Shown here one piece after another: positions 2,024 to 24,000 of a stretch of DNA of 24,000 nt (the stretch's first letter is position 1; every line of letters starts with the position of its first letter). The notes beneath the pieces were generated by a model that saw nothing but the letters and a program-made list of their open reading frames with translations, made no database searches and was not told the origin of the DNA. The stretch is taken from positions 59,938 through 83,937 of the forward strand of contig DASYXW010000053.1 of the NCBI GenBank assembly GCA_035934405.1, written 5' to 3'. The position numbers and the translations under genes were made by a program. Source of the stretch: Terriglobia bacterium. GTDB taxonomy: Bacteria; Acidobacteriota; Terriglobia; UBA7540.

Positions 2024-4132
2024 TCAAGATGACACGCTGGGCGTGCGGGCGCGGATCGCCTTCACGCGGCCTTCCACCACCGCGGCTTCCGTCTCGCGGC
2101 GCATCTTGCGCAGCAGCTTGGCGTAGCGCTCGAGACACGGGGCAACCCCCGGATGCTCCGGCCCCAGGGCCCCTTCCAGGACTTGCAGAGCCTGCTTGAA
2201 GTACTGCTCTGCCCGGTCATATTGGCGCTGGGCGTCAGAGAGCACCGCCAGGTTGTTGAGGCTGGTTGCGAGCGATGGATGGCGAGGGCCAAGGTTTTCC
2301 TTCTTCACCTCCAGCGCCCTCTCGAACAGGCGGCCGGCTTCGGCGTACTGGCCTTCGGTGCTGTAGAGGGCCGCAAGATTGTTGAGGCTCTGAGCCACGC
2401 TGATGTGGCCCGGGCCCAGGGCGTTTTCCTGGATTTCGAGCGCCCGCCGCAGCAACCCCTCCGCCTCCGCCTGCCGGCCGGTTGAGCTGTAAATCGCCGC
2501 CAGGCTGTTCAGGCCGGAGGCCAGCACCGGGTGTTCCGGGCCGAGGACGTTCTCCTGAATCGCGAGAGCCCTCTGCCACAGTGTGACGGCGCGGTCGTTT
2601 TCTCCCAACGAGCGCGACAGTTGGGCCAGACGGCTGAGCGTGTGGGCTACGTCGGGGTGATCGGGTCCAAGTGCCCGCTCGAATGTGGCGAGCGCCCGCT
2701 CGGTAAGCTCTCGGGCCTCGGCGTACTTGCGCTGGGCGTCACAAAGCTGGGCAAGGTGGTTCAGATCTGCCGCCACCGCGACGTGTTCCGCCCCCAGATG
2801 TTGCGTATCCATTTCGACCACCCTGCGCTCGAATCCCTCGGCTTCGCCGTATTTCCCCTGGCTGCTCAAGACCTCCGCCAGACGCCCCAGCGTGGCCAAG
2901 ACACCGGAAAGGCCGGCGGGTTGCAGAGACTCCCGAATCGCCAGGGCGCGCTGGTAAACCGGCTCCGCCTCCGCGTACCGGTGTTCGAGCGAGTAGAGCA
3001 AGCCGAGTTTGTCGAGCAGCGGAAGCAGGTCAGGATGCTCTGGCCCGAGCCGCGCTTCATCGCTTTCGAGCGAACGGCGGAGTTGGGCCTCAGCTTCGCC
3101 GTTCCGCCGCGCCCGCCCGTTGTTCTTTTCCGGAGCCGGGCTCTCGGGAGCCTGTGTAAACCTTGAGGCTCCAACCGGAGACGACTCCGTGGCCCGATCC
3201 AACGTCCGATCCGGGGGGCCGTGCGGCGCCAGATGAGCGAGACGATTCAAGGCGGCTTTTACTTCGGCCGCCAGGACGGAAGGATTCGAGCTCTCAGCTT
3301 CTGGGGCTGCCGACGGGTCGTCGAGCGGGGCCAGGGCAGCGTTCGCGCTCGTCTCCGCTCGGGCCGCCATGGCCACGATGTCTTGCGCCCGGCGCAACAC
3401 GGCTCCAGCCTCGGCGTGCCTGCCCTCGCGGCGGTACAGCTCGCCAAGGTTCTCGAGAATCACGGCGACGTCGGGATGTCCAGGTCCGAGGATCTTCTCC
3501 TTGATCGCCAGCGCCTGCTTGAAGAAGGTCTCCGCTTCGGGAAACATCCCGTGGGCATAGGAGACGGTAGCCAGATTGTTGAAGCAGGTGGCGACGTGCG
3601 AGTGCTCGAAGCCAACGGCCTGGATCCACATCGTCAAAGCGCGTGAGAGCGTGTCGAGGGCTCTTGAATAATCGCCTTCCGCCTTGTACAGCAGCGCCAG
3701 GTTGTTGAGGCTGGTGGCGACGGACGGGTGCTCGCGCCCCAACGCATACTCCTCAATCTCCATCGCCCGGCGGAAGAGCGGCTCGGCTTCCGCCCACCGT
3801 CCTTGCGTCGAGCACAGCGCGCCGAGGTTATTGAGGGTCTGCGCCACGCTCGGATCGTCATGCCCGCAGACGCTTTCCCGAAGCTCCAGGGCGTGGCGGA
3901 AGAGGGGTTCGGCGTCCGCAAACTTGCCCTGGGAGCGGAAAGCCTCCCCGAGATCGTTCAAGCTGGCCGCAAAGCGCGTGTCCTCCGGCCCGAACCGCCG
4001 CGCTTCTTCCACCGCCGCCCGGTGATGTTTCTCGGCCTCGGCATAGCGGCCCTCGTTGTAGGCGCGGTTTCCCGCCTCGCTGTGCGCCTGCCACTCGGCT
4101 GGCTGCGGAATGTCGGTCTCGGTCACTCGCAA
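2024..4132 (-). CDS. tetratricopeptide repeat protein (kinesin-light-chain-type TPR_10/TPR_12 arrays)
   Basis: 702 aa. Contains many 42-residue units of the form AEPL..RAL.I.E..LGPEHP.VA..LNNLA.LY...G.Y.EAE. Two arrays are separated by a Pro/Ala/Ser-rich linker. No signal peptide. Confidence 0.85.
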   Translation of the reverse strand: MRVTETDIPQPAEWQAHSEAGNRAYNEGRYAEAEKHHRAAVEEARRFGPEDTRFAASLNDLGEAFRSQGKFADAEPLFRHALELRESVCGHDDPSVAQTLNNLGALCSTQGRWAEAEPLFRRAMEIEEYALGREHPSVATSLNNLALLYKAEGDYSRALDTLSRALTMWIQAVGFEHSHVATCFNNLATVSYAHGMFPEAETFFKQALAIKEKILGPGHPDVAVILENLGELYRREGRHAEAGAVLRRAQDIVAMAARAETSANAALAPLDDPSAAPEAESSNPSVLAAEVKAALNRLAHLAPHGPPDRTLDRATESSPVGASRFTQAPESPAPEKNNGRARRNGEAEAQLRRSLESDEARLGPEHPDLLPLLDKLGLLYSLEHRYAEAEPVYQRALAIRESLQPAGLSGVLATLGRLAEVLSSQGKYGEAEGFERRVVEMDTQHLGAEHVAVAADLNHLAQLCDAQRKYAEARELTERALATFERALGPDHPDVAHTLSRLAQLSRSLGENDRAVTLWQRALAIQENVLGPEHPVLASGLNSLAAIYSSTGRQAEAEGLLRRALEIQENALGPGHISVAQSLNNLAALYSTEGQYAEAGRLFERALEVKKENLGPRHPSLATSLNNLAVLSDAQRQYDRAEQYFKQALQVLEGALGPEHPGVAPCLERYAKLLRKMRRETEAAVVEGRVKAIRARTPSVSS

Positions 4133-7472: not shown

Positions 7473-9575
7473 ATGAGAAATAAAAAGGAGCGACTGAGTC
7501 TCGGAATCATTCTCGCGGTGATGGCGTCGATGGGCAGTCTAGGAAGAAGCCTCCAAGCGCAGACGAACGCGGTGCCTTTCGTCAACCAGCCGCTCGTGCC
7601 GGAAGCGGCGGTGCCGGGCGGAGCCGGGTTCACTCTGACCGTGAACGGCACCGGGTTCGTTGCCGGGTCCATCGTGAACTGGAAAGGCAGCCCGCGCGCC
7701 ACCACCTTTGTTTCGAATTCACAATTGACGGCCGCGATTCTCGCTTCAGACATTTCCGTCCCTGGGACGGCTTCGGTTACGGTGACCAGTCCGGCGCCGG
7801 GCGGCGGAACTTCGAACGGCGCTTATTTCCAGGTTACCTCTCCGGTGTCCCCCGTACTCTTAAACAGCACCGACTACGCGACGGGTCAAAGTCCGTACTC
7901 CGTAGCGGTGGCTGATTTCAACGGCGACGGGAAACCGGACCTCGTGGTGTCAGACGTGACCCCGAGCACGGTCTCGGTGTTCCTCGGAAATGGTGATGGA
8001 ACGTTCCAGCCCCATGTGGATTATCCCGTGGCCTCGCTTCCTGACCAGTTGATCGTGGCTGATTTCAATGGCGACGGTAAGCCCGACCTTGCTGTGACCA
8101 ACGGTGACTGCGCGACGATCCCTTGTGAGCTCGCAGCGGTTTCCATTTTGCTCGGCAACGGCGACGGCACATTTCAAGCTCATAAGGAGTACGCAACCGC
8201 ATACTCGGAATACGCTATCGCCGCCGGCGACTTCAACGGCGACGGGAAGCTCGACCTGGCGGTGACAACGACTTGCGGGAGCGATTCTACTTGCGCGAAC
8301 TTGACGGGCGCTGTCTCCATCTTGCTTGGAAATGGAGACGGAACGTTCGGCGCGCATACGGATTATCCCAGCCCCGCCCTTGAAGTCCCTGGCGCCGTCG
8401 TGGTGGGCGACTTCAACCGCGATGGAAAGCTGGACATGGCAGTAGGGATGTTTTGCCCTACCTGCTTCCCGCCAGAGAATGGATCGGTTTCCGTCTTCCT
8501 CGGAAACGGTGACGGGACTTTCCAGCCCGCAGTCAGCTATGGGCTCAATAGTGGTGGTGGCCTGACAATGGTGGCAGCGGACTTCAACGGCGATGGCATT
8601 CTTGACCTGGTCGTTGGAGACTCCTACGTTTCGCTTCTCCAAGGCAACGGGGACGGCACCTTCCGCGCGCCGGTTGATTACCCCGCCCTCGGTCCGCCCA
8701 GCGCCCTGGCGGTCGGCGATTTCAACGGAGACGGCAAACTCGACGTTGCCGCTGCTGCGTCGAATTTCGGAATCACCGGAGTTTCCCTTCTCTACGGAAA
8801 TGGAAACGGGACTTTTCAAACCCATGTTGATTTTCCCGCCAGCGAATTCGCATCCTCGCTCGCCGCGGGAGACTTCAACGCGGACGGTAACCTCGACCTC
8901 GTGACAGCGAATGAGAATGACAATACCCTCTCGGTGCTCTCGCAAGCTGTGGGGCCGGTGGTGGCGCTGTCGCCAGCCAGTCTCACCTTTCCAACCCAAA
9001 TCGAGGGAACGATGAGCGCGCTTAAGAATTCCACGCTCACCAACACCGGTAACACCAGCCTGAGCATTTCGAGTCTGTCTGCGAGCAGTAGTTTTGGCCA
9101 GAAGAACACCTGCGGTGGCAGCGTGGCGGTGGGCGCGAGTTGTACGATTAGCGTGTCCTTTGATCCGAAGACCAAGGGCACGCTTACCGGAAATGTCAGC
9201 ATTGCCGACAACGCGCCGGGCAGTCCCCAAACTATCTCTCTTACCGGCACCGGCACAGCGGTGAAGCTTTCACCCACCTTCCTTGAATTTGGCAGCGTCA
9301 AGGTGGGCACGACGAGCGCCCCACAGACCATCACGCTGACCAACGTCGCCCCCAATAGCGCCCTGAGTATCGGCCGTATTGCGCTTACGGGCCAAAACCC
9401 CGGCCAATTTGCCCAGACCAACACCTGCGGGTCAAGCGTGCCTCCCGGCGGGAGTTGCACGTTCAGCGTGACGTTTACTCCCACGAAAAAAGGGAGCAAG
9501 CTCGCAGATTTATATATCTACGACAACGGCGGCGCTAGTCCGCAGATCGTGAACCTGAGCGGAGTGGGAACGTAA
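7473..9575 (+). CDS. secreted IPT/TIG + FG-GAP/VCBS repeat + choice-of-anchor-D (HYDIN-like) domain protein
   Basis: GAGGAG SD and a signal peptide. N-terminal [10 protein letters not shown]...SQLTA...VTV segment (IPT-like). About 8 repeats of [10 protein letters not shown]......VSV(L)LGNGDGTF. Two C-terminal LTN.G...L.I......F....CG..V..G.SC...V.F.P modules. Confidence 0.85.
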
Positions 9576-9661
9576 GAAAGCAGTGGCTAGTGGCTAGGGG
9601 TTATCGGTTAGGAGCTCGGTAGGCGACAGGACGGTAGGCAGGAGGCAGGTTCAAACGGCGC
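9576..9661 (+). repeat. conserved G-rich 3' element (copy 1) directly after the stop codon
   Basis: AAGAAAGCAGTGGCTAGTGGCTAGGGGTTA...GGTAGGCGACAGGACGGTAGGCAGGAGGCAGGTTCAAACGGCGC. It aligns with 12353-12449. Confidence 0.7.
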
Positions 9662-9692
9662 GATAGCCTATGATTCGGCGGCTAACAACCCG

Positions 9693-17948: not shown

Positions 17949-19310
17949 CACAGCATCTTTCGTGGCGTTTACGATAGCCGTGCTCGCGAAGGATGGCTCC
18001 TTTTTCAGGCGTAGGCGAGTCGCCGCCGCGGTCTGAGTAGTCACTGGCGCTGATTTAATGAGTGCTTCGGCGATCAATTCGACCAGATAGGTGTTTACAC
18101 CGTTGCCTAGTGCTTTGAAAGCCTGTGTTGGAACCGCTGGCAAATGCTTAAGTTCGTCCATACACTGCAGTCGAGCGCACTCCCGAACCGTCATATAGCG
18201 CCTTTCCCACGCTATGATCGGCACCTGCGTAGTCGTCATCGCGATTAGCGACGGCGCCGTCGTTGGTCGCTTCACGCGCACGCCGGACGCGCGGAATTGA
18301 ATGACGTATTTCCAGATATTCCGCTCCTCACCCTTGCAATTCCATTCGAATTTTTGAAGGCTGGGAGGGAACTGTACGATCTCCGGCAACCACCGGTCGA
18401 TCCATTCTTTGTTCTCGCAATAAAGGTTACGGTTCTGCCTTATGAACGTCCGCTTCCATGTTGGAAACCGCTTCTCTGGCGTGCGCGCGTGCGATGGAAG
18501 CGCGCCTAGGACCTTGTATCGAGCATAGCACTTGAGAGACTCGCCATGGGATCCGCGATATTTGAAGAGATCCCGGCGCGGCGTTGCCCACGGAGTCGTA
18601 TCCTCGTACGGATAGGTCGCGCCGAACTCCATCGACCAGATCGGAAACGAAGGCAACTCGATGTTGGCTGGGTATTTCTCGATGAACTTCTGCCATACGT
18701 CCAAACACTTCAGAACCGCAGGCGTCAGCCTTCTGGCATCCTTTGGATTATGGTCAAGCGCTGAGCTCAGATTTGGCTCCGCACCCTCCGGCGGCACCGG
18801 CCACCTGAAATTGCCCAAACCGTCACGGCTCCCCACGATGAACATTCGCTCGCGAATCTGCGGGATGCCAAATTGATGAGGCGACAGGTACGCGAATGCG
18901 ACCGCGTAACCCGCATTTTGGAATTGCCGCTCAAGATCCTCCCATGTCTCACCGCCGTTGTGCCGCTTGAGATTCGGGACGTTTTCCAAAAGGATGAAGC
19001 GCGGTTTACGCGCTCGCGCTATCCGTAGCATATGACCTAGAAGGTTGCCCCACTTCGGACACTCTACCCCCTGCTGCTCGCCAGCCTTCGAGAACGGTTG
19101 GCAGGGCGAGCCCGCACACAAAATGTCGTGATCCGGTACCTCGCAGATCGGCACCGAAAGAATGTCGCCCGCCGGGCGTATCCCGTAGTTTGCCTCGTAC
19201 AGTTCTCGCAGAGTCGTGTCAATCTCACTCGCGAAGACACAATTGTTGCCCAGGCGCTTCAGCGCAAGGTGAAATCCTCCGAGCCCAGCAAACAAGTCTA
19301 TGAAGCGCAT
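17931..19310 (-). CDS. dcm: DNA (cytosine-5)-methyltransferase
   Basis: 459 aa. Motif I DLFAGLGGF, motif IV GSPCQPFS, motif VI LLENVPNL, motif VIII QIRERMFIVG, motif X ALGNGVN. A long variable region lies between VIII and X. Confidence 0.9.
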   Translation of the reverse strand: MRFIDLFAGLGGFHLALKRLGNNCVFASEIDTTLRELYEANYGIRPAGDILSVPICEVPDHDILCAGSPCQPFSKAGEQQGVECPKWGNLLGHMLRIARARKPRFILLENVPNLKRHNGGETWEDLERQFQNAGYAVAFAYLSPHQFGIPQIRERMFIVGSRDGLGNFRWPVPPEGAEPNLSSALDHNPKDARRLTPAVLKCLDVWQKFIEKYPANIELPSFPIWSMEFGATYPYEDTTPWATPRRDLFKYRGSHGESLKCYARYKVLGALPSHARTPEKRFPTWKRTFIRQNRNLYCENKEWIDRWLPEIVQFPPSLQKFEWNCKGEERNIWKYVIQFRASGVRVKRPTTAPSLIAMTTTQVPIIAWERRYMTVRECARLQCMDELKHLPAVPTQAFKALGNGVNTYLVELIAEALIKSAPVTTQTAAATRLRLKKEPSFASTAIVNATKDAVSLVEW

Positions 19311-19762
19311 CGCCTGCTGTTCCGCCGACGCAACAGGACGTTCTCGACTTGGGTCGCCGCACGCTCCGGGTCCGCTTTAATGTCACCTTCCCAAAGCCGC
19401 ATCACGCACCAGTGCTGTTTTTTTAGCAGGCGGGTCGTCTGGCGGTCCCGCAGCATATTCGCTCGAATCTTCCTCCGCCAATAGCCCGCGTTCGCCCCCT
19501 TTTGGAGGTGCTTCGAGAGCCGATGCCAACGCCGGCCATGCCAGAAATCCCCGTCACAAAAAACAGCCACCCGCCCCCTCGCGAAAACAACGTCCGGCTT
19601 GCCGGGAAGCCCGGCCAGATTCTTGCGAAATCGCAGTCCGCGCCGCCACAGCGCGCTTCGAAGAAGCCTCTCGTGCATGGTGTCGGCGCTGCGGTTCATC
19701 CGCTTTGCCAACGATGCGGCCTGCGAGGTCGCCTTCAGTCCGATGTATGAAGGGGTCTTCAT
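19298..19762 (-). CDS. vsr: very short patch repair endonuclease
   Basis: LPGKPDVVF...AVFCDGDFWHG...W..K signature. The ORF track begins at GTG 19780. I prefer ATG 19762, which is preceded by AAGGGA. The 3' end overlaps the dcm start by 13 nt. Confidence 0.85.
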   Translation of the reverse strand: MKTPSYIGLKATSQAASLAKRMNRSADTMHERLLRSALWRRGLRFRKNLAGLPGKPDVVFARGRVAVFCDGDFWHGRRWHRLSKHLQKGANAGYWRRKIRANMLRDRQTTRLLKKQHWCVMRLWEGDIKADPERAATQVENVLLRRRNSRRCAS

Positions 19763-19865
19763 CACGGAATCCCTTTTCACAGCCTGACCGGGGGTCAGTA
19801 TACGCCTGGGGAGTAGCGCTCGTCGAGATGGCAGATACTTGACCCTGCTGGCACCGAGCGCCGAT

Positions 19866-20120
19866 CGCGCCCTGAACTACCTCGCGGTGCGCTATCACGC
19901 CATCTATGCCAACGCCGCCGAAGCCTTTGCGCGCAATGCGTCGCTGACCGGCGTGTATGTGGTTCCGTCGTCTTTGAGCGGCACGCGCAAGGTGGCCGAT
20001 GTGATTTTCTCTTACACCAACCGCTCGACCGATGTGGTGGAGAAGTTTTTTACGCGCGTGGACGTGACCGAGGAGTTTCCATTCCTGGTCACGAAGCTGT
20101 CGCCGTACTACGACCGTTAA
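19866..20120 (+). pseudogene. 5'-truncated paralogous copy of the last 84 codons of the PatG-DUF-like gene (22541-23470)
   Basis: 255 nt align without gaps to 23216-23470 with 13 differences by my count. The encoded 84 aa are identical. An in-frame stop lies at 19815-19817, and weaker similarity extends back to about 19820. Confidence 0.7.
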
Positions 20121-20148
20121 ACTACGGAAGTGGCAGGAGGTCATTCCA

Positions 20149-20343
20149 ATGCGTTTAGCCGAATTCACCGCCGACGCTTCGCTCTCTGAGGGCAGCGAGG
20201 AGTATGCCATGAGGGCGTCACCTGCCTCGACGGCCGGGGCTACGGGTTTGGTGTTGCCGGCCATCGAACATTGCTGGGGTAGGTTATGCGTATGGTGCGC
20301 CTGGAATCATGGTCGTGACTGCGGGATCAAATGGAAGTTTTAA
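20149..20343 (+). CDS. precursor-like small peptide (64 aa), third member of the family at 23505/23746
   Basis: GGAGG SD 8 nt upstream. MRLAEFTADASLSEGSEEY shares F6, A8, D/E9, L12 and Y19 with the other two peptides. LVLPA hinge, then the tail IEHCWGRLCVWCAWNHGRDCGIKWKF (4 Cys, 4 Trp). Confidence 0.55.
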   Translation: MRLAEFTADASLSEGSEEYAMRASPASTAGATGLVLPAIEHCWGRLCVWCAWNHGRDCGIKWKF

Positions 20344-20645: not shown

Positions 20646-21011
20646 TTGAGAGACGCTTGCTACGGAGCTGACGGCGGTGCTAGCCTTCATGCGCCAGTGC
20701 ATTTTCTCACCGATTTCGAGGGCCGACCCATTCGCCTCACCGACGAGCGCTGGCGCCATATTTGTGAACACCCAGAAATGGGTGACATGCGGGATTCCTT
20801 GGATGAAACCCTGCGACTGCCGGATGTTGTTGTCGAGTCCGTCGGCGATCCAGACGCGTGGCTTTACTACCGCTTCTACCATCGAACGCTTGTCGGAGGA
20901 AAGTACCTGGGTGTAGTGGTAAAATTCCCGAAGGCTGATGCGTTTGTGGTGACTGCTTATGTCACCGACCGGGTGAAGAAAGGCAACGTCCTATGGCCGA
21001 GAGAATCGTGA
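20646..21011 (+). CDS. small toxin-like protein (DUF4258-like by memory)
   Basis: IRLTDERWRHICEHPEM...LPDVVVES..DP...YYRFY...GKYLGVVVKF...AFVVTAYVT pattern. The start is uncertain (TTG 20646 or GTG 20697). It overlaps the next gene by 19 nt. Confidence 0.5.
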   Translation: MRDACYGADGGASLHAPVHFLTDFEGRPIRLTDERWRHICEHPEMGDMRDSLDETLRLPDVVVESVGDPDAWLYYRFYHRTLVGGKYLGVVVKFPKADAFVVTAYVTDRVKKGNVLWPRES

Positions 21012-21196
21012 AGATGTGGTTCGATCCCGAAGCCGACTTTCTCGAAGTCACCTTCGAGCAAAAGCCGGGATATTTCCGCGAGACCGAGAACGACCTCGTG
21101 ATGGAAAAGGTTGACACCCAGGGGAACGTGATCGGATTTTCCGTGCTGCGCGTCAGCTCCTTGAAAAAGACTCCGCTCGAAGTTGCGCTCCGGTAA
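20993..21196 (+). CDS. DUF2283-family small protein (antitoxin-like partner)
   Basis: 67 aa. WFDPEADFLEVTF....G........V.EKVDTQGNVIGFSVL matches the YD.EAD.LYI......vD.d..G.vvGiEiL pattern of DUF2283. Confidence 0.6.
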   Translation: MAERIVKMWFDPEADFLEVTFEQKPGYFRETENDLVMEKVDTQGNVIGFSVLRVSSLKKTPLEVALR

Positions 21197-21354: not shown

Positions 21355-22251
21355 GTGAGCCCTCTGGATCTGGTCCACCTCTCACCCTTGATGGAGCGCA
21401 CGCAGGGTCGCGCTGAGCTCATCGTCGCTTTGATTGATGGGCCTGTGGCGCTCGACCATCCTGACCTCGCCGGCGCGACTGTCCGTCATGTTGGCGGCGA
21501 ACTTCCTGGAAAACTGAAAGGAGCCTGTAGCCTGGCCCAGAGCGTGGCGTGCACGCACGGCACGTTTGTGGCCGGCGTACTTTTTGCGCGGCGGGGTTCC
21601 GAGGCGCCGGCCATTTGTCCGGCGTGCACGCTGTTGCTGCGGCCAATCTTCGCGGAAACGGCGAGCAAGAACGGAGACATGCCGAGCGCGACTCCGGTAG
21701 AACTGGCCCAAGCCATTATCGAAAGCGTTGATGCGGGCGCGCGCGTCATCAACTTGAGTTCCGCCCTGGTTCAACCTTCACTGAAAGGTGAAAGAGAGAT
21801 GGAGGAGGCGCTCAACCACGCAGCGCAGCGCGGCGCCATCACGGTGGCGGCGGCGGGCAATCAGGGAACGGTGGGAAGTTCCATCATCACGCGCCATTCC
21901 TGGGTGATTCCGGTGGCCGCCTGCAATCCTCAGGGCAAACCGCTCCGCGAATCGAATCTCGGAAGCTCGATCGGCCGGCGGGGACTGAGCGCGCCGGGGG
22001 AGAACGTTACCAGCCTCGGAACCAACGGCAAGCCGCAGACTTTTGGCGGCACCAGCGCGGCGGCGCCTTTTGTGACCGGCGCGATTGCGCTCCTCTGGTC
22101 GGAGTTTCCAGGCGCCAGCGCAGGCGAGATTAAACTGGCCGTGACGCAAGCCGGTATACCACGGCGGCCCACCGTCGCTCCGCCCGTGCTCGACGCCTGG
22201 GCCGCTTATCAGGTGATGGCCTCCGCCCATAACGGGAGAAGAGTGGCATGA
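21355..22251 (+). CDS. S8 family subtilisin-like serine protease, PatA/PatG-like branch
   Basis: 298 aa, GTG start. Catalytic elements appear in canonical order: Asp in LIVALIDGPVALDHPDL, His in ACTHGTFVAGVL, Asn in AAAGNQG, Ser in GGTSAAAPFVTGAIALLW. No signal peptide. Confidence 0.85.
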   Translation: MSPLDLVHLSPLMERTQGRAELIVALIDGPVALDHPDLAGATVRHVGGELPGKLKGACSLAQSVACTHGTFVAGVLFARRGSEAPAICPACTLLLRPIFAETASKNGDMPSATPVELAQAIIESVDAGARVINLSSALVQPSLKGEREMEEALNHAAQRGAITVAAAGNQGTVGSSIITRHSWVIPVAACNPQGKPLRESNLGSSIGRRGLSAPGENVTSLGTNGKPQTFGGTSAAAPFVTGAIALLWSEFPGASAGEIKLAVTQAGIPRRPTVAPPVLDAWAAYQVMASAHNGRRVA

Positions 22252-22454
22252 GCAGAAAAGAAAGCAGCAAGAATCACGGCGGCGAACCCGAGCATCAGCC
22301 GCACCGCGTTCGTCTTCCGGGGTTCCTCATCGAGGAGGAAATCGGACTCGGAGATACCGTCAAGAAAATAACCTACGCCATGGGATTCAAGCCGTGCGGC
22401 GGATGTGAGAAGCGCGCCGCGGCGCTCAACCGGTGGATGAGTTTTACGCGATAG
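22248..22454 (+). CDS. small CxxC protein (68 aa)
   Basis: ATGA overlap with the protease stop. The GLGDTVKKITYAMGFKPCGGCEKRAAALNRW motif is one I recall as a widespread small domain of unknown function. It also carries RLPGFLIEEE. Confidence 0.6.
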   Translation: MSRKESSKNHGGEPEHQPHRVRLPGFLIEEEIGLGDTVKKITYAMGFKPCGGCEKRAAALNRWMSFTR

Positions 22455-22540: not shown

Positions 22541-23470
22541 ATGGAGCAACAGGAAGCGAACGAGCAATTGGCAACTGCATCTGTCAGCGGGAATGACGCC
22601 GCGGCGATAGCGGCCTCTGCCGCGAGGCCGGCGGCATCGCTGGCGCCGCAGGCGTGTCCGACTTGCGGCACGGCGCCGGCAGCGAATGGCGGAGCCGCCG
22701 CGCCCAGCTACGTCTATGCCATCGGCAGAATTGAACCCCGCTTCCCGCGGCCGTCGGTGGAAAAGGAATTCGCCCAGGCCGTGGGGCGGGACAAGACTTC
22801 CGGCCTTACCGACCGCCAGGCGCTGCATGCGGTGCTTTCGAAGCCCGAAAATCGTTATCTCGTGCGGCACTTGTGCTGGGTGATGACGATTGAGGGCCTC
22901 GAAACCTACATCCTGGTCCCGCGTGACCCGGCGGATTTCAATCTTCTGGTCGAAGCGCTCCGTCCTACGCCGCAACCCTGGGACCTGGATTGCGTCATCG
23001 GGTTTCGCGGACCCATCGCCGGGCCGGAAGTGTGCAACGGGCTGATGGTGCCGATTGTGGCGTTTGACCAAATCTATTCCTTCGACCGCGATTCGCTGAT
23101 CAAAGCCATTCCCAAACCCGAGAAGACCACGGCCAAGGACTTTGCTCCGGCGGCGGAGGAACTGTTCGACCGCATCATGCAGATGACGGATAACGCCGGC
23201 GCGACCGATGAGAACCGCGCTTTGAATTACCTGGCGGTGCGCTATCACGCCATCTATGCCAACGCCGCCGAAGCCTTTGCGCGCAATGCCTCGCTGACCG
23301 GCGTGTATGTGGTCCCGTCGTCTTTGAGCGGCACGCGCAAGGTGGCCGATGTGATTTTCTCTTACACCAACCGCTCGACCGATGTGGTGGAGAAGTTCTT
23401 TACGCGCGTCGATGTGACCGAGGAGTTTCCGTTCCTGGTGACGAAGCTGTCGCCGTACTACGACCGCTGA
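22541..23470 (+). CDS. free-standing protein resembling the PatA/PatG C-terminal domain of unknown function
   Basis: The ORF track starts at 22475. I prefer ATG 22541, which has AGGAGG at 22526-22531. It contains CPTCG followed by SYVYAIGRIEPRFPRPSVEKEFAQAVG, which resembles from memory the YVYALG..GYDFG.EARRD opening of the PatG C-terminal domain. Confidence 0.7.
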   Translation: MEQQEANEQLATASVSGNDAAAIAASAARPAASLAPQACPTCGTAPAANGGAAAPSYVYAIGRIEPRFPRPSVEKEFAQAVGRDKTSGLTDRQALHAVLSKPENRYLVRHLCWVMTIEGLETYILVPRDPADFNLLVEALRPTPQPWDLDCVIGFRGPIAGPEVCNGLMVPIVAFDQIYSFDRDSLIKAIPKPEKTTAKDFAPAAEELFDRIMQMTDNAGATDENRALNYLAVRYHAIYANAAEAFARNASLTGVYVVPSSLSGTRKVADVIFSYTNRSTDVVEKFFTRVDVTEEFPFLVTKLSPYYDR

Positions 23471-23504
23471 AATTCGAGGAATATGGGATCAAAGGAGGTC
23501 ACAC

Positions 23505-23705
23505 ATGAGTCTCCCAGGGTTTGTTGCTGATGTTTCGCTAGCTGGCTCGCGGAGTCCTTATCAGGCGGGCGCAGAGCATGACAATTTGGCTGCCGGCGCA
23601 AAGGTTGTGCCCCAACTTTTCTATATCTCCGTAGGCCCAGGCCGCTGCGCTGTGGGCGAGTATGCCGGTGGCGCGTGCTGGTTCTACGGGATCGTGAGCT
23701 GCTAG
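23505..23705 (+). CDS. precursor-like small peptide (66 aa)
   Basis: AAGGAGG SD. MSLPGFVADVSLAGSRSPY leader-like motif and VVPQ hinge. Tail LFYISVGPGRCAVGEYAGGACWFYGIVSC (3 Cys). Confidence 0.6.
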   Translation: MSLPGFVADVSLAGSRSPYQAGAEHDNLAAGAKVVPQLFYISVGPGRCAVGEYAGGACWFYGIVSC

Positions 23706-23745
23706 ATGATTTTGAAAGCACACATCAGACGTAAAGGAGAAAAAG

Positions 23746-24000
23746 ATGAGCACACCAGGATTCACCGCCGAGGCTGCGCTCGGCAAAATGAGGGAAAGCT
23801 ACGCTCTCACCTCGGGGATCGCAGCAGAGACCGGGAGCGTTCTGCCCCAACAATGGGGGATATTACAGAACTTACAGGTCTGCCGAACCGTTTGTTTTTC
23901 AGTTCCTGGTTCCCTCGGCCCTAAGGTCGTTTGTGACACGCTCTGTCCGCCTGGGGTCGGGCATTCTCACAGAGGCGCCCAGAGCTACACGGCTTACTGA
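23746..24000 (+). CDS. precursor-like small peptide (84 aa), complete; the stop is the last codon of the window
   Basis: AAGGAG SD. MSTPGFTAEAALGKMRESY leader-like motif and VLPQ hinge. Tail QWGILQNLQVCRTVCFSVPGSLGPKVVCDTLCPPGVGHSHRGAQSYTAY (4 Cys). Confidence 0.6.
   Translation: MSTPGFTAEAALGKMRESYALTSGIAAETGSVLPQQWGILQNLQVCRTVCFSVPGSLGPKVVCDTLCPPGVGHSHRGAQSYTAY

Follow-up and report, generated by a model that had tools for sequence, protein, structure and literature searches.

What is made from small genes that begin alike and end differently? The question is raised by a stretch of 24,000 nucleotides (nt) from a Terriglobia bacterium (Acidobacteriota; assembly GCA_035934405.1, contig DASYXW010000053.1, positions 59,938 to 83,937 of the forward strand), here called the window, in which three small open reading frames (ORFs) share an N-terminal motif and then diverge. 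Our reading, to which we give a probability of about 0.65, is that the three ORFs are precursors belonging to a large unnamed family and that they are matured by a self-contained, mobile three-gene cassette, a 'split PatA'. The ORFs are listed with their E values in a leave-out hidden Markov model (HMM) of the leader.

Positions 23505-23705, forward strand: putative precursor peptide 1, 66 amino acids (aa); motif at residues 1-19, hinge VVPQ at residues 34-37 (23604-23615), core LFYISVGPGRCAVGEYAGGACWFYGIVSC with 3 Cys; E 4.9e-12.
Positions 23746-24000, forward strand: putative precursor peptide 2, 84 aa; hinge VLPQ at residues 32-35 (23839-23850), 49-aa core with 4 Cys; E 1.7e-13.
Positions 20149-20343, forward strand: putative precursor peptide 3, the 'orphan', 64 aa; hinge VLPA at residues 35-38 (20251-20262), 26-aa core with 4 Cys; E 1.5e-8.

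An earlier reading of the letters alone (the sequence-only reading) had described a gap-free common start in these ORFs. The alignment indeed runs from Met1 to Tyr19 without gaps in all three, with M1, F6, A8, [D/E]9, L12 and Y19 in common. The second patch that it had described is also present in each, as KVVPQ (residues 33-37), SVLPQ (31-35) and LVLPA (34-38) in peptides 1, 2 and 3, respectively. The tails that follow measure 29, 49 and 26 aa and contain 3, 4 and 4 Cys. A Shine-Dalgarno site lies 6-8 nt before each ORF (aaggagg at 23492-23498 for peptide 1, aaggag at 23734-23739 for peptide 2 and aggagg at 20135-20140 for peptide 3). The leave-out HMM, trained on 246 peptides that all come from other genomes, was run on 484 six-frame segments of the window and matched exactly these three; the next best segment had an E value of 0.64. 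Scanning Pfam and NCBIfam gave no significant match for peptides 1-3, and an exact-sequence look-up of the 66-aa peptide 1 returned no database record. Because the TGA stop codon of peptide 2 forms the final three bases of the window, the array possibly extends beyond it.

Three genes stand upstream of peptides 1 and 2. They encode a subtilase (S8), a small protein that we call p68, and a protein related to the domain of unknown function (DUF) of PatG.

Positions 21355-22251, forward strand: PatA-type subtilase (S8), 298 aa; Pfam PF00082, E 5e-25.
Positions 22248-22454, forward strand: p68, 68 aa; found in 72 of 81 sources.
Positions 22541-23470, forward strand: stand-alone PatG-DUF protein (PatG_D + PatG_C), 309 aa; start codon ATG at 22541, with an aggagg Shine-Dalgarno site.

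The conservation of this arrangement was examined in the loci of the best 80 of 351 DUF relatives found in GTDB species genomes; together with the window these form the 81 sources. The genes for S8, p68 and the DUF protein follow each other in that order, and are themselves followed by 1-8 genes with the N-terminal motif (tagged genes), in 75 of the 80 loci. Independent gene calls agree with this layout. The S8 was present in 75 of the 81 sources, with one S8 per cassette (one locus has a short extra fragment). When the leader HMM was applied to six-frame translations, 253 tagged ORFs were found in 77 of the 81 sources, 1-8 per locus. Nearly all (248) are on the strand of the DUF gene, and 238 of these 248 lie 0-6 kb downstream of it. 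An orthologue of peptide 2, P0002, directly follows the S8, a 66-aa gene and the PatG_D/C genes in L081 and L082.

The association was also apparent in the reverse direction. Database matches to the leader alone, where they lie on long contigs, start 28 nt after a PatG_D/PatG_C gene in 3 of 3 cases; in one of these loci the S8 directly precedes the DUF gene and in two a 69-aa gene stands between them. The motif thus occurs beside PatA/G-like genes elsewhere, whether the search goes from the PatG-like gene outward or from the leader back. Clustering of all other ORFs within ±10 kb revealed no conserved transporter, immunity gene, modifying enzyme or other neighbour in the 80 loci. In the cyanobacterial loci L067 and L071, and in L092 with its neighbouring phycobilisome gene, the S8 stands directly before the DUF gene and p68 is missing; L020 has a DUF gene and tagged peptides without an S8 within 10 kb. 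A p68 and a linked S8 are therefore not universal.

The leader itself is well defined. From 249 unique peptides the consensus M-x-h-P-G-F-T-A-E-A-S-L-Y-x-T-x-x-x-Y was obtained, with P4 conserved in 98%, F6 in 96%, A8 in 95%, E/D9 in 90%, S11 in 81%, L/I12 in 88% and Y19 in 82%. The residues that had been singled out as invariant from three sequences are thus the ones conserved across the family. The whole conserved tag covers about 37 residues, as the motif is followed by a variable linker of about 12 residues that ends in a V-h-P-[QA] hinge. A hinge of the form [VIL]-x-P-x was found in 188 of 244 peptides, compared with 30% in shuffled sequence, and it keeps a constant spacing to the motif (median 29 residues, interquartile range 28-30). 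At P1, the residue after the hinge proline, Q accounts for 48%, A for 30%, and S and M for 6% each; the hinge search required a proline, so the proline at P2 is partly built in.

The view that the leader belongs to no named family also held up: neither the three window peptides nor nine further members of the consensus type matched any NCBIfam or Pfam model, the NHLP, Nif11 and double-glycine leader families included. A profile built from the three window peptides alone found 5 relatives, and one built from 90 leaders found 2,420 database proteins, all annotated as 'hypothetical' and without Pfam domains.

Where would the leader end? Comparison of peptide 1 with its orthologues P0001, P0003 and P0004 showed 90-97% identity in the core and 15-54% in the linker, with conservation starting at KVVPQ. 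The tails had been called hypervariable, which is correct for paralogues and fails within this orthologous family. Cysteines give an independent view of the boundary. They account for 12.9% of the residues in cores and 0.3% of those in leaders. Among 188 peptides, the count of cysteines downstream of the hinge is even in 182 and odd in 6. The same parity was found with one peptide per cluster (138 of 145 clusters, p = 1e-32) and in independent database proteins (110 of 118, p = 5e-24). Taken as a whole, 37 peptides have an odd number of cysteines, most of them with exactly one Cys in the leader, and 36 cysteines upstream of the hinge fall outside the even pairing. Because parity holds only for the part after the hinge, the tag is probably removed near the hinge and the cores are probably disulfide-paired. 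The nearest unpaired leader cysteine that we noticed lies two residues before the hinge V (in L037), and the first core cysteine may be the second residue after the hinge. These two positions would bracket the cut to the hinge itself. The sequence comparisons thus support the hinge as the leader/core boundary.

The cores are diverse in size and type. Their length is between 15 and about 430 aa, and the downstream sequences from the 80 loci form at least 145 clusters. The commonest numbers of core cysteines are 6, 4 and 8 in the loci and 4, 6 and 8 in the database set. Zinc binding by the cores was considered and rejected, as cores with 2, 6 or 10 Cys occur just as often as those with a multiple of four, a distribution that fits disulfides better than 4-Cys sites. 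No conserved C-terminal follower or recognition sequence was found in the cores, whose final residues are diverse. Some cores carry Stig1-like Cys-rich repeats, and one core family, containing …PFCGNCDYILDRC…, recurs in Pyrinomonadaceae, Verrucomicrobia, Brocadia, Chloroflexota and Alphaproteobacteria. A tagged protein in L084 (3166-3633) has a phospholipase-A2-like domain with a CxxHDxCY-type motif and matches three phospholipase A2 Pfam models, the best with an E value of 6.6e-6, which is below the gathering score. This domain suggests that the tag is also carried by enzyme-sized cargo. Since the cores include entire Cys-rich proteins with lengths of up to about 430 aa, the family appears broader than the classic RiPPs (peptides that are made by ribosomes and modified after translation). 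In line with the earlier proposal, the cores may be natural products or bacteriocins. The third conserved cysteine of the peptide 1 family is its C-terminal residue (…GIVSC).

The identity of the protease bears on whether such a cut can be expected. The best relatives of the S8 in the PDB are the N-terminal cyanobactin proteases PagA and PatA (4h6w, E 1e-29; 4h6v, E 2e-28), and the match to the PatG macrocyclase is weaker (4aks, E 1.7e-12). By its sequence relationships the enzyme resembles specifically the PatA type, the leader-removing kind. Its catalytic triad of Asp, His and Ser is conserved in 73 homologues, as is a CPAC motif. It scored 108.5 bits against NCBIfam TIGR03895, for which the cut-off is 421, and is accordingly a homologue and not a curated member of that family. 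PatA itself cleaves after G(L/V)E(A/P)S (PMC10885120). With this second recognition sequence of the cyanobactin precursors (RSII) the hinge has in common only a P2 Pro, or Ala-like character, and a hydrophobic P4. Because the hinge shares this P2/P4 character with the PatA site, cleavage after Q or A by the S8 of the cassette would be the most economical reading. The sequence-only reading had assigned the cut to an adjacent S8 protease. The type of protease and the position of the hinge agree with that assignment, and the adjacency does not, as the 68-aa gene and the PatG-DUF gene lie between the S8 gene and peptides 1-2. Fixed hinge spacing, a PatA-type S8 and cysteine parity after the hinge together support the earlier view of a precursor with leader, hinge and variable core.

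Within the cassette, the DUF protein is the best conserved component; the 80 best relatives are 65-88% identical across phyla, and 1,657 representatives of 50% clusters were matched. It scores above the gathering thresholds of both PatG-derived Pfam families (PF18047, PatG_D, 6e-33; PF18065, PatG_C, 1.5e-33). An AlphaFold2 model (mean predicted local distance difference test score, pLDDT, of 89.7) gave a sole significant PDB match, the PatG DUF structure 4UVQ, with an E value of 1.1e-14 and template-modelling (TM) scores of 0.67/0.77. A phmmer search of the protein against PDB sequences missed 4UVQ, so the kinship is visible only at the level of profile and fold. The structure of the PatG DUF was reported in 2014, with its function unknown (PMC4259220), and the domain was still termed a DUF in 2025 (PMC12639078). 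With an S8 closest to PagA/PatA and a partner that matches the PatG DUF, the cassette can be described as a 'split PatA' to which one small protein is added.

Three versions of the DUF module were found: a stand-alone protein, a fusion to S8 (P0130, P0135, P0137, P0141) and a fusion to a JmjC oxygenase (P0213, P0225). Tagged genes were found beside the stand-alone DUF as well as beside an S8-DUF fusion (L084) and JmjC-DUF fusions (L083, L085). The JmjC-DUF genes (L083:2502-4634 and L085:1649-3841) are each followed by a separate S8 gene and then by a sulfotransferase-like gene in L083 or a 249-aa gene in L085. Genes upstream of them encode the same PGF leader, with VSPQ as the hinge (in the L085 peptide, MVEPE), and cores that are predicted to be helical and poor in Cys. 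These loci likely represent a modified-peptide variant of the system.

The third component, p68, has 1,883 relatives in the databases, all 'hypothetical'. It consists of a disordered N-terminal arm, with an invariant RLPGF followed by acidic residues that resembles the start of the leader, and a C-terminal half that forms a hairpin of helix, CGGC loop and helix. In the AlphaFold2 model residues 1-30 have pLDDT < 50 and the helices span residues 34-44 and 51-67. Using hhalign, the arm aligned with the start of the leader (VRLPGFLIEEEI on MNMPGFTAEASL, P = 0.0011). The protein may conceivably serve as a pseudo-substrate or adaptor. In L069 the S8 and p68 matches fall within one mechanically listed ORF, which can be read as an S8-p68 fusion. 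Residues 32-66 of p68 match the phage family phrog_32048 (E 8.7e-7), and the helix-CxxC-helix hairpin therefore also occurs in phage proteins.

A conserved CxxC motif is present in all three cassette proteins: 'AICPAC' in the S8, the invariant 'CGGC' in p68, and 'CPTC' in the DUF protein, where it is the only conserved feature of the disordered first 55 or so residues (81 homologues). Given the disulfide-rich substrates, the three motifs could form a shared zinc site or a redox relay.

From these data we infer binding, cleavage, disulfide formation, secretion and activity as parts of one maturation route. Recognition would involve binding of the PGF-type motif by the stand-alone PatG-DUF protein, a role proposed because the leader is constantly accompanied by the DUF and nothing else is conserved as well as these two. 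The DUF protein would then hand the precursor over to the enzyme that comes with it, S8 or otherwise. With its RLPGF on a disordered arm, p68 may occupy or regulate the leader site of the DUF protein. The PatA-type S8 would cut at the hinge, likely after Q or A, with Pro at P2 and V, I or L at P4, as suggested by sequence statistics and homology. The released core would then fold with all its cysteines in disulfides, and since all of them would be paired, it would probably act outside the cytoplasm as a secreted antimicrobial or effector.

Several observations do not sit well with this route. The likeness of p68 to the leader is a match of 12 columns with an hhalign probability of 20%. Proline is absent from the hinge in 23% of the peptides, most of which carry V-V-[AS]-Q variants. 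The PatG DUF did not bind the precursor PatE in vitro (PMC4259220), and a leader-binding role for this fold is thus without precedent. Peptide 1 and its orthologues P0001, P0003 and P0004 break the even-Cys rule with three core cysteines; such a core may form an intermolecular disulfide or be modified at its C-terminus. Finally, no Sec/Tat features and no conserved transporter were found, yet the products are disulfide-rich and reach about 430 aa. For the leaders, the median of the maximal 10-residue hydropathy within the first 40 aa was 0.87, with 5 of 249 reaching 2.0 and an RR motif in 1 of 249, in a simple hydropathy scan that used no trained predictor.

The position of the orphan peptide 3 would be explained by how the arrays appear to change. 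It is preceded by a remnant of the DUF gene:

Positions 19866-20126, forward strand: 3' remnant of the DUF gene, last ~85 codons plus stop; Pfam PatG_C, 8e-26.

This segment is a 261-nt direct repeat of 23216-23476 with 94% identity, and peptide 3 starts 22 nt after it. Remnants of the DUF C-terminus are found elsewhere as well, 24 in all: one in the window and 23 in 19 other loci. They reach residue 305-309 of 309 in 22 of 24 cases, and in 21 of 24 (20 of 23 outside the window) a tagged gene follows within 29-187 nt. The remnants look like the footprint of cassette capture or displacement by recombination at the 3' end of the DUF gene. Comparative sequence suggests that a module of DUF 3' end plus peptide recombines into the 3' end of the DUF gene, displaces older modules and leaves remnants behind.

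In the window, the module of remnant and peptide 3 lies upstream of the cassette, with a toxin-antitoxin-like gene pair between them, and is bordered by a putative restriction-modification/Vsr island. An upstream cassette copy was therefore probably truncated. The stretch 12911-19780, which resembles a defence island and ends 86 nt before the DUF-gene remnant, may be what truncated it. It includes the following genes.

Positions 15907-17013: PD-Lambda-5_A/PDC-M38A-like protein.
Positions 17013-17948: partner of the PD-Lambda-5_A-like protein, phrog_14650.
Positions 17931-19310, reverse strand: putative C5 DNA methyltransferase, from the ORF translation alone.
Positions 19298-19780, reverse strand: putative Vsr-type endonuclease, from the ORF translation alone.

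Directly upstream of the S8, a 121-aa ORF with a weak PBECR2 nuclease-like match (20646-21011) overlaps a 67-aa ORF with a DUF2283 match (20993-21196), which looks like a toxin-antitoxin pair. The DUF2283 gene is found in the same place in the near-identical short contigs L086-L088.

Most of the loci (58 of 80) belong to Acidobacteriota. The others are from Alpha-, Beta-, Gamma- and Deltaproteobacteria (including Nitrosospira and Nitrotoga), Nitrolancea and another member of Chloroflexota, Brocadia (Planctomycetota), Verrucomicrobiota, Spirochaetia, Cyanobacteria and Entotheonellaceae. The cassette is also carried on plasmids of cultured Mesorhizobium, Sinorhizobium and Streptomyces. On the 91-kb plasmid of Streptomyces sp. 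NBC_01568 (L090, 3246-5600) it lies between a recombinase/DUF4158 gene and a Tn3-family transposase, and this placement on a plasmid of a Gram-positive host is direct evidence for mobility. In the Mesorhizobium and Streptomyces plasmids, the tagged ORFs directly after the DUF gene are not listed in the PLSDB gene tables, which are incomplete.

A wider proposal follows the same lines, and we hold it tentatively, at slightly less than even odds: the PatA/PatG DUF would be a leader-recognition module at the core of a mobile system that spans phyla, in which one PGF leader serves hundreds of disulfide-rich cargos, a PatA-type protease removes it, and cassettes are captured at the 3' end. If true, this would be a new class of ribosomal peptide or effector system with a leader family of its own, counting at least 2,400 database members.

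Could the tag serve another purpose? It could be a targeting signal by which the cargo enters some unrecognised route of export or sorting, with the DUF protein and p68 as cytoplasmic targeting factors or chaperones, the S8 as a 'signal peptidase' and the cargo as polymorphic secreted effectors. Such a route would suit a tag that is position-locked at the extreme N-terminus and a cargo that ranges from about 25 to about 430 aa and includes phospholipase-A2-like and Stig1-like folded domains. Cysteine pairing implies an oxidising compartment, the best NCBIfam match of the S8 is a type VII secretion system mycosin (below cut-off), and array turnover with remnants recalls polymorphic toxin loci. 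What an export route would require is a membrane or transporter component, and none is conserved in the 80 loci; S8, p68 and the DUF protein have no signal peptide or hydrophobic segment in the first 40 residues that were scanned. The peptide genes also leave no room for immunity genes between them (median gap 147 nt, with 137 of 171 gaps <= 300 nt), and among solved structures the S8 is closest to leader proteases of the cytoplasm. We therefore regard an export tag as unlikely, though it overlaps with the precursor reading and differs from it only in the primary purpose of the tag.

Far less probable is an intracellular pro-toxin or abortive-infection module, in which S8, DUF protein and p68 would hold pro-toxins or activate them upon phage attack or stress, killing the producer. 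The thought is prompted by the defence-type genes that the cassette adjoins in the window (PD-Lambda-5_A-like, putative methyltransferase/Vsr and the toxin-antitoxin-like pair), by the mobility of the cassette, and by a match of the generic 'subtilase' model of PADLOC to the S8. This neighbourhood is not conserved in the other loci, however, and the DUF protein, p68 and peptide 1 match no PADLOC model. Strict cysteine pairing and extracellular-type domains favour action outside the cytoplasm, and up to eight unrelated cargos per locus would be atypical for abortive-infection effectors. A known defence system was likewise rejected, since PADLOC gave the generic subtilase match only.

A cyanobactin-type pathway, with cores excised at both ends and macrocyclised head to tail, ranks lower still. 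Both protein components are homologous to parts of cyanobactin proteases, and disulfide-rich cyclic peptides exist, such as the plant cyclotides. The cassette has a single S8, however, which is PatA-like and not macrocyclase-like and stays at 108 bits in TIGR03895 against the cut-off of 421; the cores have no conserved C-terminal recognition sequence, and a heterocyclase or prenyltransferase is missing from the cassette. That the ORFs are chance reading frames or decayed fragments without a product, as their lack of a curated family and absence from the examined (incomplete) PLSDB plasmid gene tables might suggest, is already refuted by conservation: leave-out E values of 1e-8 to 1e-13, about 2,400 database proteins with the same tag, strong Shine-Dalgarno sites on all three ORFs, orthologous cores that are 90-97% identical, and cysteine parity.

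The precursor reading describes a system of leader-guided peptide maturation, for which cyanobactin PatA is the closest case. The two systems have in common an S8 (its closest sequence relatives being PatA and PagA), a partner with the PatG/PatA DUF fold, a ribosomal precursor (putative here) whose leader would be cut at a short sequence in which P2 is Pro or Ala and P1 is small or polar, and the absence of an encoded transporter, which holds for the pat cluster as well. In contrast to cyanobactin clusters, the S8 and DUF are encoded separately here, on either side of a 68-aa gene (relatives with a fused S8-DUF do exist), and a PatG macrocyclase, heterocyclase, oxidase and prenyltransferase are all missing. 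The leader shows no relationship to PatE, and no short cores flanked by RSII G(L/V)E(A/P)S and RSIII AYDG occur; the cores are of 15-430 aa and disulfide-rich, versus macrocycles of 6-20 residues. The distribution also differs, being mainly in Acidobacteriota and other non-cyanobacterial phyla. Without a macrocyclase, heterocyclase or PatE sites, with an S8 below the TIGR03895 cut-off, an uncurated leader and only the generic subtilase match in PADLOC, this is not a cyanobactin pathway.

One leader with many tandem unrelated cores and one dedicated processing set or protease is also found in multi-precursor RiPPs and bacteriocins (prochlorosin-like Nif11/NHLP and double-glycine class II systems). 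Unlike these, the cassette has no C39-type ATP-binding cassette (ABC) transporter, LanM or other modifying enzyme, and the sole predicted 'modifications' are proteolysis and disulfides, to which rarer variants add the JmjC oxygenase and the sulfotransferase-like gene. Its architecture, protease type and Cys-parity boundary would fit a leader/core precursor with leader removal, as in the general definition of a RiPP. The cyanobacterial 'group VI' bacteriocin clusters with S8 domains have double-glycine leaders and ABC transporters (PMC3140520); identity with these was rejected, as theirs is a different, double-glycine/ABC-based system (PMC3140520).

Polymorphic toxins, such as cdiA-CT/cdiI of contact-dependent inhibition (CDI) systems and Rhs, likewise combine a conserved N-terminus with diverse C-terminal cargo, and their displaced modules are preceded by fragments of upstream sequence. 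In the system studied here, however, the homology block is the 3' end of a separate DUF gene and not of the toxin gene itself, paired immunity genes and a dedicated secretion apparatus are lacking, and the cargos are small disulfide-rich peptides instead of nucleases or deaminases.

No prior description was found in Pfam, NCBIfam, PADLOC or the full-text literature, most subscription journals being outside the scope of that search. What sets the system apart is a new leader family, the split PatA with p68, disulfide-rich cargo of up to protein size, and cassette turnover marked by remnants. Capture of cassettes at the DUF 3' end would be a diversification route without a described counterpart in RiPP-like loci. 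About 2,400 tagged peptides, 1,900 p68 proteins and 1,650 DUF cluster representatives are now listed as 'hypothetical', and simple searchable rules would allow their immediate annotation. The question of what the DUF does in PatA and PatG gains a handle, as it occurs here as a separate protein and always with one short leader, whatever enzyme is fused to it (S8 or JmjC). The cores, coming from soil Acidobacteria, nitrifiers, anammox bacteria and others, are a likely source of stable bioactive disulfide-rich scaffolds. Cultured carriers make the system experimentally tractable, with plasmids in Mesorhizobium sp. B2-1-1, Sinorhizobium mexicanum and Streptomyces sp. NBC_01568, and genomes of Edaphobacter modestus DSM 18101, Nitrosospira sp. 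Nl5 and Nitrolancea hollandica.

Other genes of the window, which encode exosortase, tetratricopeptide repeat (TPR) and FG-GAP/ASH-Ig proteins, are unrelated to the cassette and not conserved beside it elsewhere. Sorting by a PGF-CTERM/exosortase system was considered and rejected, as the tag is N-terminal, has no transmembrane helix, and is not accompanied by a conserved exosortase. A DUF3485 domain and the exosortase EpsH are encoded at 336-1927 on the reverse strand (exosortase 992-1927). A large TPR protein follows at 2024-4132, also on the reverse strand, and two paralogous FG-GAP/ASH-Ig proteins of about 700 aa are encoded at 7473-12352 on the forward strand.

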